DNA from: an uncultured Chloroflexia bacterium
GTDB lineage: Bacteria > Chloroflexota > Anaerolineae > Aggregatilineales > Phototrophicaceae
Reading direction: 5' to 3'
DNA: 64,000 nucleotides
Assembly: GCA_963760975.1 (NCBI GenBank)
Contig: CAVXEZ010000015.1
Coordinates: 45,674 to 109,673, forward strand
Shown here: positions 56,512 through 57,786 of the stretch, piece by piece
How the letters are laid out: each line of letters begins with the position of its first letter
Numbering within the stretch: the stretch's first letter is position 1
The notes under the pieces: generated by a model
Database searches by the model: none
What the model was told of the DNA's origin: nothing
What the model saw: only the letters and a program-made list of their open reading frames with translations
Translations under genes and position numbers: made by a program

Positions 56512-57786
56512 ATGTTCAACATGCCGATGACGCTCCACGTCGAAGGGGGCAGCCCGCTCAGCGGCGTTTACAAGCCGTCCGGCAACGCCAACGCGGCGCA
56601 GGCGCTGCTGGTGGCGGCGCTGATGAGCGAAGCGCCGGTCACGCTGCGCAACATGCCGCGCACGCTCAGCACGCAGGCGATGATCGAGATCGCCGGGCAG
56701 TTGGGCGCGGCGCTGACGTGGGAAGACGATGCGCTGCACGTACACGGCGCGCAGATCACGCGGCGCGTGCTTTCGCAGGCGGATACCGACGCGACCGTCG
56801 GCGCGCTGCTGTTCGTCGCCCCGATGCTGATCCGGCGGCAGCACGTCCGGCTGGAGATTGACTTTCCGCTCAGCCGCATCCGCACCCATCTGGAAGCGCT
56901 GCGCGACCTGGGCATCGACATCGTCAGCACCAGCGACGCGGTCGAGTTCAAGGCGGCGTCGTGGAATTGCAAGGACATCGTGCTGACGCAGACCAGCGTC
57001 ACGGCGACGGCGCTGGCGATGATGCTGGCGGCGCGGCTGGGCAACAAGACCGTCATCCACAACGCCGCCTGCGAGCCGCACATTCAGGAACTCGGACATT
57101 TGCTCAACGCGATGGGCGCGCAGGTCGAGGGCATCGGCTCGAACGTGCTGCGCATCACCGGCGTCAGTGAATTGAGCGGCGCGGACGTGACCGTCGGACC
57201 CGACCACATCGAAGCGGCGAGCATCGCGGGCGTCGCCGCGCTCTGCGGCGGGCGCGTGCAGATCGATGGGATTCGCATGGCGGACATGCGCATGATCGCC
57301 AAGATTTACTGGCGGCTCGGCATCACGCTCGACATTGACGAGGAGGCGATCTTCATCCCCAGGCACGAGACGCTGACCGTCTCCAACCGCGAGGAGGATG
57401 TGGATTCGTCCATCGAGACCGCGCCCTGGCCCGGCTTCCCGTCCGACCTGGTCGCCGTCGCCACCGTGATCGCCACGCAGGCGCGCGGCACGTCGCTGAT
57501 CCACGAGAAGCTGTTCAACAACCGCCTGCTGTTCGTGGACAAGCTCAAAGCGATGGGCGCGCAGATCGTCCTGTGCGACCCGCACCGCGCGATTGTCGTC
57601 GGACCGACGCCGCTGCACGGCATCTACATGGACTCGCCGGACGTGCGCGCCGGGCTGGGGATGCTGACCGCCGCGCTGGCGGCGCAGGGCGAGTCGGTCA
57701 TCGACAACGCGCAGGCGATTGAGCATACCTTCGCGGGCGTACTCGGCAAGCTGCAAGCGCTGAACGCAAAAATCACGGTCGAATGA
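56512..57786 (+). CDS. MurA (enolpyruvyl transferase)-fold protein with degenerate active site
   Basis: V.GG.PL.G, SVTAT, NAACEPHI, PDHIEA, TAPWPGFPSD, F.NR, DVRAG; SGAKN becomes SGNAN, the PGGC/D loop and RGY are lost. Confidence 0.85.
   Translation: MFNMPMTLHVEGGSPLSGVYKPSGNANAAQALLVAALMSEAPVTLRNMPRTLSTQAMIEIAGQLGAALTWEDDALHVHGAQITRRVLSQADTDATVGALLFVAPMLIRRQHVRLEIDFPLSRIRTHLEALRDLGIDIVSTSDAVEFKAASWNCKDIVLTQTSVTATALAMMLAARLGNKTVIHNAACEPHIQELGHLLNAMGAQVEGIGSNVLRITGVSELSGADVTVGPDHIEAASIAGVAALCGGRVQIDGIRMADMRMIAKIYWRLGITLDIDEEAIFIPRHETLTVSNREEDVDSSIETAPWPGFPSDLVAVATVIATQARGTSLIHEKLFNNRLLFVDKLKAMGAQIVLCDPHRAIVVGPTPLHGIYMDSPDVRAGLGMLTAALAAQGESVIDNAQAIEHTFAGVLGKLQALNAKITVE

Follow-up and report, generated by a model that had tools for sequence, protein, structure and literature searches.

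One open reading frame of the window (the whole stretch of 64,000 nucleotides which was analysed, GC content ~64%) encodes a protein with the fold of MurA in which residues of the active site are replaced, and it is followed by the genes of an alpha/beta hydrolase and of a Mur ligase with membrane helices (Table 1). This raises the question whether the protein is still a MurA and, if not, which function it may fulfil in this neighbourhood. The protein and the clade of MurA-like paralogs to which it belongs are referred to as MurAL, a name coined in this study. The names of the homologs put the window in the Anaerolineae/Aggregatilineales, and the source genome comprises 5.6 Mb on 30 contigs and is 93.6% complete.

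Table 1. Features of the window in and around the MurAL gene cluster.
Feature	Position	Strand	Remarks
MurAL, MurA-like paralog, 424 aa	56512-57786	+	ORF list, PF00275, profiles, alignments, AF2
Cytoplasmic alpha/beta-fold hydrolase, 271 aa	57783-58598	+	Start codon shares ATGA with the MurAL stop codon
26-bp perfect palindrome between the hydrolase and ligase genes	58610-58635	.	Copy of a genome-wide REP-like element
N-terminal membrane piece of the ligase, 92 aa, TM helices 1-3	58649-58927	+	Severed by a +1 frameshift
Remainder of the ligase, two more TM helices and Mur ligase middle and C-terminal domains	58893-60296	+	Open frame from 58893; predicted ORF starts at TTG 58974
DUF456 small membrane protein	60344-60847	+	Usual next gene of the cluster
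SRAP gene	53057-53722	-	

The assignment of MurAL to the MurA fold was obtained in three ways. PF00275 (EPSP-synthase/MurA family) covers the protein end to end (1-416 of 417 positions), the AF2 model has high confidence values (pLDDT 92.5; pTM 0.91), and a comparison of this model by Foldseek with more than 40 MurA structures, a check which the preliminary description had proposed, resulted in TM values of 0.91-0.93 at an rmsd of ~2 Å. The best matches include complexes of MurA with UDP-MurNAc and UDP-GlcNAc. MurAL thereby shares the two-domain inside-out alpha/beta barrel with canonical MurA (TIGR01072; E. coli 1UAE, E. cloacae) over its full length. The sequence is ~26-29% identical to solved MurAs and ~40% identical to the MurA of its own lineage. 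With the profile of the murA equivalog TIGR01072 it scored 326.8 bits, which is below the cut-off of 392.7; the sole murA model which was passed is the subfamily model NF006873 (334 bits, cut-off 297). Public records name the MurAL proteins 'UDP-N-acetylglucosamine 1-carboxyvinyltransferase', an annotation as MurA that is probably wrong.

In the structures of MurA and EPSP synthase, R331 and R371 hold the carboxylate of PEP, and K22, R120 and R397 hold its phosphate. HMMER alignments to solved MurAs and MAFFT alignments with ~100 canonical MurAs revealed that K22, which is involved in the formation of adducts with PEP and fosfomycin, is replaced by Ala in MurAL, where the SG(A/N)KN motif reads SGNAN (SGNANA); across all members of the family this position is occupied by A, S, P, T or V, and by Lys in none. 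D49 is replaced by Ser, R91 has no basic equivalent, and R397-G-Y reads H-T-F, position 397 being H, R, N or Q over the family. The flexible catalytic loop of MurA, LPxPGG(C/D)xIGxRP, is represented by RLE-IDFPL-SRI, which is 4-6 residues shorter and has no GG(C/D) motif. N23, R120 (LSRI; its register is ambiguous by one residue owing to the deletion in the loop), H125, S162-V163-T164, E188, D305 (FPSD), R331 (NNR) and D369/R371 (PDVR) are kept, and D305 as well as R331/R371 are invariant even in relatives with only 38-44% identical amino acids. The preliminary description had named the replacement of K22, D49, R91 and R397 in a MurA fold, the shortening of the loop to EIDFPLSRI and the persistence of the equivalents of D305, R331 and R371 (PSD, NNR, DVR); the alignments and the structural model agreed with it in all these points.

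The conserved ligand residues of MurA are Cys115, Asp305, Lys22, Arg120, Asp369 and Leu370 (PMC4062475). The equivalents of Arg120, Asp305, Asp369 and (Leu/Ile)370 are R122, D312, D377 and V378 in the numbering of the window's protein and are invariant or nearly so. Eleven contacts to UDP-GlcNAc are listed for E. coli MurA 1UAE (PMC13750019); seven of these have equivalents in MurAL, R91, D123 and K160 are lost, and L124 is changed. Judged from the alignments, the side of the active site which binds the phosphate of PEP is degraded in MurAL, as two of its three ligands (K22, R397) and the general acid are gone.

Beside these losses, charged residues have become fixed in MurAL. A shorter, invariant motif rich in Arg and acidic residues (RLE-x-D-F/Y-P-L-N/S-R-I-R-T-H) has taken the place of the catalytic loop, and R85, R109, R113, E115, D117, R122, R124 and others are invariant in MurAL and absent from canonical MurAs. 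An acidic REEDVD stretch before D305 is likewise conserved in MurAL and not in canonical MurAs. The new invariant residues cluster in or near the cleft, namely in the replaced loop and in the stretch before D305. D117 is an invariant Asp, but the context of the loop is unlike that of Cys/Asp115 in MurA. From this pattern, the cleft looks more like a rebuilt than a decayed active site, which would suit a new enzyme and a binding protein equally.

The pattern is common to more than 100 MurAL homologs (53-88% identity); more than 120 cluster representatives with 67-88% identity and the MurAL proteins of 70 species-level genome loci (53-87% identity) share it. Since the substitutions are common to all sampled members of the family, they are due neither to chance nor to sequencing errors, a possibility for which the inspection of homologs had been suggested beforehand. 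The open reading frame is intact in this assembly, and dN/dS values of 0.17-0.21, calculated with four relatives, lie in the same range as those of the hydrolase, the ligase, psuG and uvrB. In a phylogenetic tree, MurAL forms one long-branched clade together with more distant metagenomic MurA-like proteins, apart from the canonical MurAs of the order. For the same genome pairs, the mean identity is 55% for MurAL and 66% for canonical MurA; measured in this way, MurAL evolves faster. A fold which is kept, catalytic motifs which are lost and purifying selection are the hallmarks of a pseudoenzyme. The description as a 'pseudoenzyme or neofunctionalised sugar-nucleotide-binding protein', which had been given at the outset, is therefore a fair reading in view of the lost residues, the purifying selection and the tight linkage to hydrolase and ligase.

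MurAL is not the MurA of the cell, as the genome carries a canonical murA at another place, on contig 13; its product scored 477-479 bits with TIGR01072 and possesses a GGD loop of the Asp115 type. The gene aroA is located on contig 1. The dcw cluster on contig 17 comprises murB, murC, murD, murG, mraY and ftsW, murE is present as well and frameshifted in the assembly, and ddl, folC and a MurF'-Alr fusion (C17:190046) were also found. The preliminary description had linked MurAL to an incomplete peptidoglycan pathway. As canonical murA, murB, murC, murD, murE, murG, mraY, ddl and the alr fusion are all present, this link did not hold, and a role of MurAL as the sole MurA of a reduced pathway is ruled out. 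The search for a second, canonical murA and for murB to murG, which had been recommended as well, thus succeeded for murA, B, C, D, E and G, and no stand-alone murF is located in the dcw cluster. Canonical MurA accompanies MurAL in essentially all genomes with MurAL, and in a class-wide sample a second MurA-family match occurred in only 5 of the 201 genomes.

Downstream of the hydrolase, a membrane-anchored MurF-like ligase had been proposed, and Mur ligase domains as well as hydrophobic helices corroborated this. In relatives, the ligase consists of ~550 aa with N-terminal hydrophobic helices and the domains Mur_ligase_M and Mur_ligase_C. In this assembly it is interrupted by a frameshift of one base near position 58920, namely by one extra C in the run at ~58917-58922 in comparison to intact relatives. 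A natural split of the gene in the window's family was ruled out, as tblastn revealed no internal stops and only the copy of the window is frameshifted. The motifs GxTGSxGKTxTK (P-loop), EMGA, AKYE, HN, YSANP and ELG are invariant in the orthologs. With canonical MurF (TIGR01143) the ligase shares the motifs of the ATP, Mg and dipeptide sites of the middle and C-terminal domains, and ddl adjoins the gene in most relatives. Unlike canonical MurF, however, it does not have the three-domain architecture: in place of the N-terminal UDP-binding domain (domain 1) it carries a segment of ~170 aa, which comprises two conserved basic loops and five TM helices. The match to TIGR01143 begins at model position 62 and reached 212.6 bits, below the cut-off of 288.6. 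According to the basic loops and the positive-inside rule, the ligase domains would be placed in the cytoplasm.

With MurE as the root, a phylogenetic tree placed the membrane ligase as the sister group of canonical MurF with moderate support (FastTree, SH-like value 0.86), and the MurF' domain of the fusion branches outside. The window's genome has no murF in the interval from ftsI to mraY, and the PBP gene abuts mraY; in a genome of the family f2, which is without the module, murF is located directly upstream of mraY. The MurF' domain modulates alanine racemase in Phocaeicola, and MurF' of Chloroflexota clusters with the coexisting non-chimeric MurF (PMC13726279). This non-chimeric MurF may be the membrane form found here. 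Judged from its motifs, its phylogenetic position, its distribution (see below) and the gap in the dcw cluster, the membrane ligase is probably the real MurF of this lineage, the MurF'-Alr fusion of the same genome being the other candidate for the MurF activity. The identification of the ligase as a probable MurF, its frameshift and the dispensability of MurAL in some genera (see below) are points which the preliminary description did not contain.

The distribution of MurAL and the ligase was analysed in a sample of the order comprising 121 genomes, in which MurAL was counted at an identity of at least 47% and the families are GTDB groups (numbered within f1 to f60); the sampling of genomes is incomplete, and related genomes cannot be counted as independent observations. 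MurAL was detected in the window's genome and in 10 of the 21 other genomes of f1, in all genomes of f55 (22/22), f58 (10/10) and f59 (21/21), and in 18 of the 19 genomes of f60. It was found in none of the genomes of f2 (0/22), f56 (0/1) and f57 (0/4). The membrane ligase occurred in f1 (21/21), f55 (21/22), f58 (10/10), f59 (20/21) and f60 (18/19). The families f2 (2/22, weak matches), f56 and f57 lack it almost completely, and only in these three was a stand-alone canonical MurF (480-520 aa; 354-416 bits) found in this sample. Membrane ligase and stand-alone MurF are thus complementary by family. The MurF'-Alr fusion accompanies both kinds of MurF and is therefore not the complementary partner. 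Within the order sample, MurAL was found only in families with membrane MurF. As far as can be read from these gene contents, the canonical MurF encoded in the dcw cluster has apparently given way to a MurF with five TM helices and without domain 1 in five families, all of one order of the Anaerolineae.

The gene order MurAL-hydrolase is nearly universal in the 70 species-level loci; the Mur ligase of ~550 aa is the next gene in most of them, often followed by DUF456 and Ddl. The ATGA overlap between the stop of MurAL and the start of the hydrolase, which had been noted before, was confirmed at positions 57783-57786. Three further loci carry paralogs which are 38-44% identical to MurAL. An alpha/beta hydrolase is located beside all of them and a Mur ligase beside two, one of these in another gene order; the occurrence of the module around such distant paralogs and in a different order speaks for a functional module and against inherited synteny. 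In genomes with a split cluster, MurAL keeps the hydrolase as its neighbour and the ligase is located elsewhere in the genome; the possibility that genomes without an adjacent ligase have none was thereby ruled out. In five genera (g3, g4, g119-g121), hydrolase, ligase and Ddl are retained and MurAL is absent. Since these genera keep hydrolase-MurF-Ddl, MurAL is not required for the MurF step. Fusions of MurAL were also sought; three long proteins contained PF00275 only and neither a ligase nor a hydrolase domain, which is weak evidence against a partnership of MurAL with these proteins.

In the hydrolase, the HGWG and GHSxGG motifs, the Asp and the His are invariant in 65 orthologs, and the Ser-Asp-His triad is intact. 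A scan of the sequence revealed neither a signal peptide nor a TM segment. Comparisons with the ESM Atlas, the PDB and NCBIfam yielded only generic alpha/beta-hydrolase relatives (esterases, C-C hydrolases) and no specific function.

MurAL is thus a paralog of the MurA family which has lost catalytic residues and forms part of a rearranged MurF module. Its most probable role, to which we assign a probability of roughly 0.45, would be that of an accessory, PEP-independent UDP-sugar-binding partner. MurAL would no longer use PEP and no longer perform an enolpyruvyl transfer; it might bind a precursor of the UDP-GlcNAc or UDP-MurNAc type and assist the hydrolase/MurF step at the membrane. It could hand the substrate to a MurF which no longer possesses a nucleotide-binding domain of its own, or it could sense the level of the precursor and regulate the step accordingly. 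The membrane-bound hydrolase/MurF step would then complete UDP-MurNAc-pentapeptide beside MraY. We infer both the ligand and the partner solely from the retained residues and from the gene neighbourhood. A wider picture is unlikely in its entirety: the last cytoplasmic step of precursor synthesis would have been rebuilt as a membrane machine in five families of the Anaerolineae, with a 5-TM MurF without UDP-binding domain, a retired MurA paralog providing recognition of UDP-MurNAc in trans, an alpha/beta hydrolase with an editing or regulating function, and delivery of the product straight to MraY.

The observations on the cleft can also be explained by a neofunctionalised enzyme. In this case, the rebuilt loop (E115, D117 and the new Arg residues) together with D305, D369, R331 and R371 would catalyse another reaction, with a UDP-sugar or a precursor of peptidoglycan as the substrate, for example a PEP-free transfer or removal of a carboxylate-bearing group, in sequence with the hydrolase and the ligase. 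The loop has been replaced by a strictly conserved motif and has not drifted, new invariant charged residues lie in the loop and before D305, and the general base D305 and the carboxylate-binding Arg residues persist in the most distant relatives. The neighbouring hydrolase and ligase keep their catalytic motifs, as would be expected for a pathway, and MurA-fold enzymes with other acceptors are known (NikO, PDB 4fqd). However, neither a substrate nor a reaction can be put forward from the data, only one of the three phosphate ligands is left, the general acid is missing, and the loss of MurAL in genera which keep hydrolase-MurF-Ddl speaks against an obligatory step of a pathway. This explanation is less probable than the accessory role, but the most probable of the alternatives. 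If MurAL were instead still a working UDP-GlcNAc enolpyruvyl transferase, i.e. a second MurA isozyme, the new Arg residues would have to offset the loss of K22, R91 and R397, and D117 would have to act as Asp115. This would be in accordance with the NF006873 score and with the invariance of D117, and Asp does replace Cys115 in natural MurAs (PMC4062475), including the canonical MurA of this genome. It is nevertheless very improbable, because the score is below the cut-off of the equivalog, no member possesses K22, a conserved ligand residue (PMC4062475), the loop lacks 4-6 residues, position 397 is variable (H/R/N/Q), which is unexpected for a phosphate ligand, and MurAL evolves faster than canonical MurA (55% versus 66% identity).

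MurAL might furthermore be a pseudoenzyme which regulates or buffers canonical MurA, either in a heteromer or as a decoy for inhibitors targeting MurA; the association with MurF would then be a mere co-regulation of cell wall genes. Canonical MurA co-occurs in the genomes with MurAL, pseudoenzyme paralogs which regulate active relatives have been reviewed (PMC10211241), a model of a MurA1-MurA2 pair exists (PDB 9a7b), and a domain derived from MurF serves in the same phylum as a modulator of alanine racemase and not as a ligase (PMC13726279). Against this stand the facts that MurAL never adjoins canonical murA, that it is located beside the hydrolase in nearly all loci and that it occurs only in lineages with membrane MurF, which makes such a regulator quite improbable. 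Sequencing errors or a decaying pseudogene, finally, can be ruled out with near certainty: the frameshifts in murE and in the MurF variant show that the assembly is not free of indel errors, but the MurAL frame is intact, the same substitutions recur in more than 100 independent assemblies, dN/dS is ~0.2 and the AF2 model is highly confident.

The accessory binding partner proposed here differs from canonical MurA by the loss of K22, D49, R91, R397 and the Cys/Asp115 loop, by its position in a hydrolase/MurF module and by its loss in some genera. Gram-positive bacteria also possess a second MurA-family gene in the genome (MurAA/MurAB, MurA1/MurA2, MurZ). These isozymes are active MurAs with the full set of catalytic residues; MurAL, in contrast, lost catalytic residues and belongs to a separate, long-branched clade. 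The nikkomycin enolpyruvyl transferase NikO still uses PEP. Like MurAL, it is a MurA fold recruited beyond the role of MurA in peptidoglycan synthesis, but it is only a distant match (E 5e-14, TM 0.88; PDB 4fqd), and the context of its gene differs. The MurF'-Alr chimera of Bacteroidota and Chloroflexota (PMC13726279) is, like MurAL, a repurposed Mur paralog; it occurs in the same phylum and in the same genome and forms a part of the same rearrangement of the D-Ala branch. Unlike the free-standing MurAL, it belongs to the Mur ligase family and is fused to its partner. In a literature search, the report on this chimera was the sole relevant paper, and no description of the MurAL clade or of a TM-anchored MurF was found.

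MurA and MurF are textbook examples of near-universal antibiotic targets with highly conserved architectures. If the proposed role is correct, MurAL would be a copy of MurA which gave up PEP chemistry and is still kept by selection, in a lineage whose MurF step appears to be carried out by an enzyme anchored in the membrane and devoid of the nucleotide-binding domain. This provides a testable system for the organisation of Mur enzymes at the membrane and for non-catalytic roles of Mur paralogs. Furthermore, surveys of pathway completeness based on TIGR01143 would wrongly score these genomes as devoid of MurF.

Two open reading frames of the window (60331-60909 and 53048-53743) were rejected as genes; the real genes at these places are those of the DUF456 protein and of SRAP (Table 1). 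The palindrome in the spacer between hydrolase and ligase has a 22-bp core, which is present in 81 copies genome-wide.

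The gene for the membrane-anchored MurF, located 3' of the alpha/beta hydrolase gene, is disrupted by a +1 frameshift, caused by a single surplus C within a cca-ccc run. At the break, one frame ends with ...AVYPPE* and the next continues with PNEGEIKK..., whereas in the relatives L014, L042, L083 and L069 the stretch AVYPP(D/N)EGE(I/V)KK is uninterrupted in a single frame. Such a break could reflect a true pseudogene or an indel in the assembly. The latter is more likely, because murE is also frameshifted in the same assembly: it is divided between two frames, and positions 1-212 and 212-471 of the murE model lie in separate ORFs. 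Since murE is an essential gene, its split suggests that the assembly contains indel errors.

The window's genome has a dcw cluster with the gene order rsmH ... PBP (ftsI-like)-mraY-murD-ftsW-murG-murC-murB, from which murF is absent ahead of mraY. The order murF-mraY-murD-ftsW was found in a genome of family f2 (L152, G187:C70), which belongs to the same order and lacks the module of the MurA-like paralog (MurAL) and the membrane-anchored MurF. The window's genome also encodes a fusion of a MurF-like part (MurF') with an alanine racemase, and fusions of the same kind are known from Bacteroidota and Chloroflexota (PMC13726279). The MurF' part reached 257 bits with the MurF equivalog model TIGR01143, which is below the cut-off, and in the Mur ligase tree it falls outside the grouping of canonical and membrane-anchored MurF.

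Canonical murA is contained in an open frame of 725 aa, the first ~195 residues of which match (R)-S-adenosyl-L-methionine hydrolase (NF058624). Either these are neighbouring genes without an intervening stop in that frame, or they form a fusion. Public data include a MurA-family protein of 757 aa (P0274).

Locations of the features described

Feature	Location	Strand	Remark
SRAP/YedK-type peptidase	window 53057-53722	minus	
Pseudouridine-5'-phosphate glycosidase-like Indigoidine_A protein	window 54524-55462	plus	
DinB-family proteins	window 55330-56379 / 55929-56522	minus	alternative frames
Perfect 26-bp palindrome, TAGGGGCACGAT / ATCGTGCCCCTA	window 58610-58635		within 50-bp hydrolase-ligase spacer
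Frameshift in membrane-anchored MurF gene	window 58893-58930		
Canonical murA frame (L001)	G000:C13:518582-522853		
MurF'-alanine racemase fusion (L011)	G000:C17:188546-192103		open frame about 816-870 aa
murE (L007/L012)	G000:C17:234965-235581		
dcw cluster (L151)	G000:C17:270500-286500		
G000, the window's own genome; C13 and C17, its contigs.

The peptidase, Indigoidine_A and DinB-family genes of the table lie upstream of MurAL. Many relatives likewise possess psuG, the gene for the Indigoidine_A protein, on this side of MurAL, though mostly several kb off. In the more distant Anaerolinea sp. CH2 contig (L068), the hydrolase does not come after MurAL (56% identity); MurAL is preceded by a phosphoglucosamine-mutase-like PGM/PMM gene, with murJ nearby, and these surroundings represent another cell-wall context. 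In one relative, a called ORF of 46 aa (L005/L006 9281-9421) separates MurAL from the hydrolase.

The palindrome between hydrolase and ligase represents a REP-like palindromic element found intergenically in the window's genome; its 22-bp core occurs 81 times there (0 in the reversed control).
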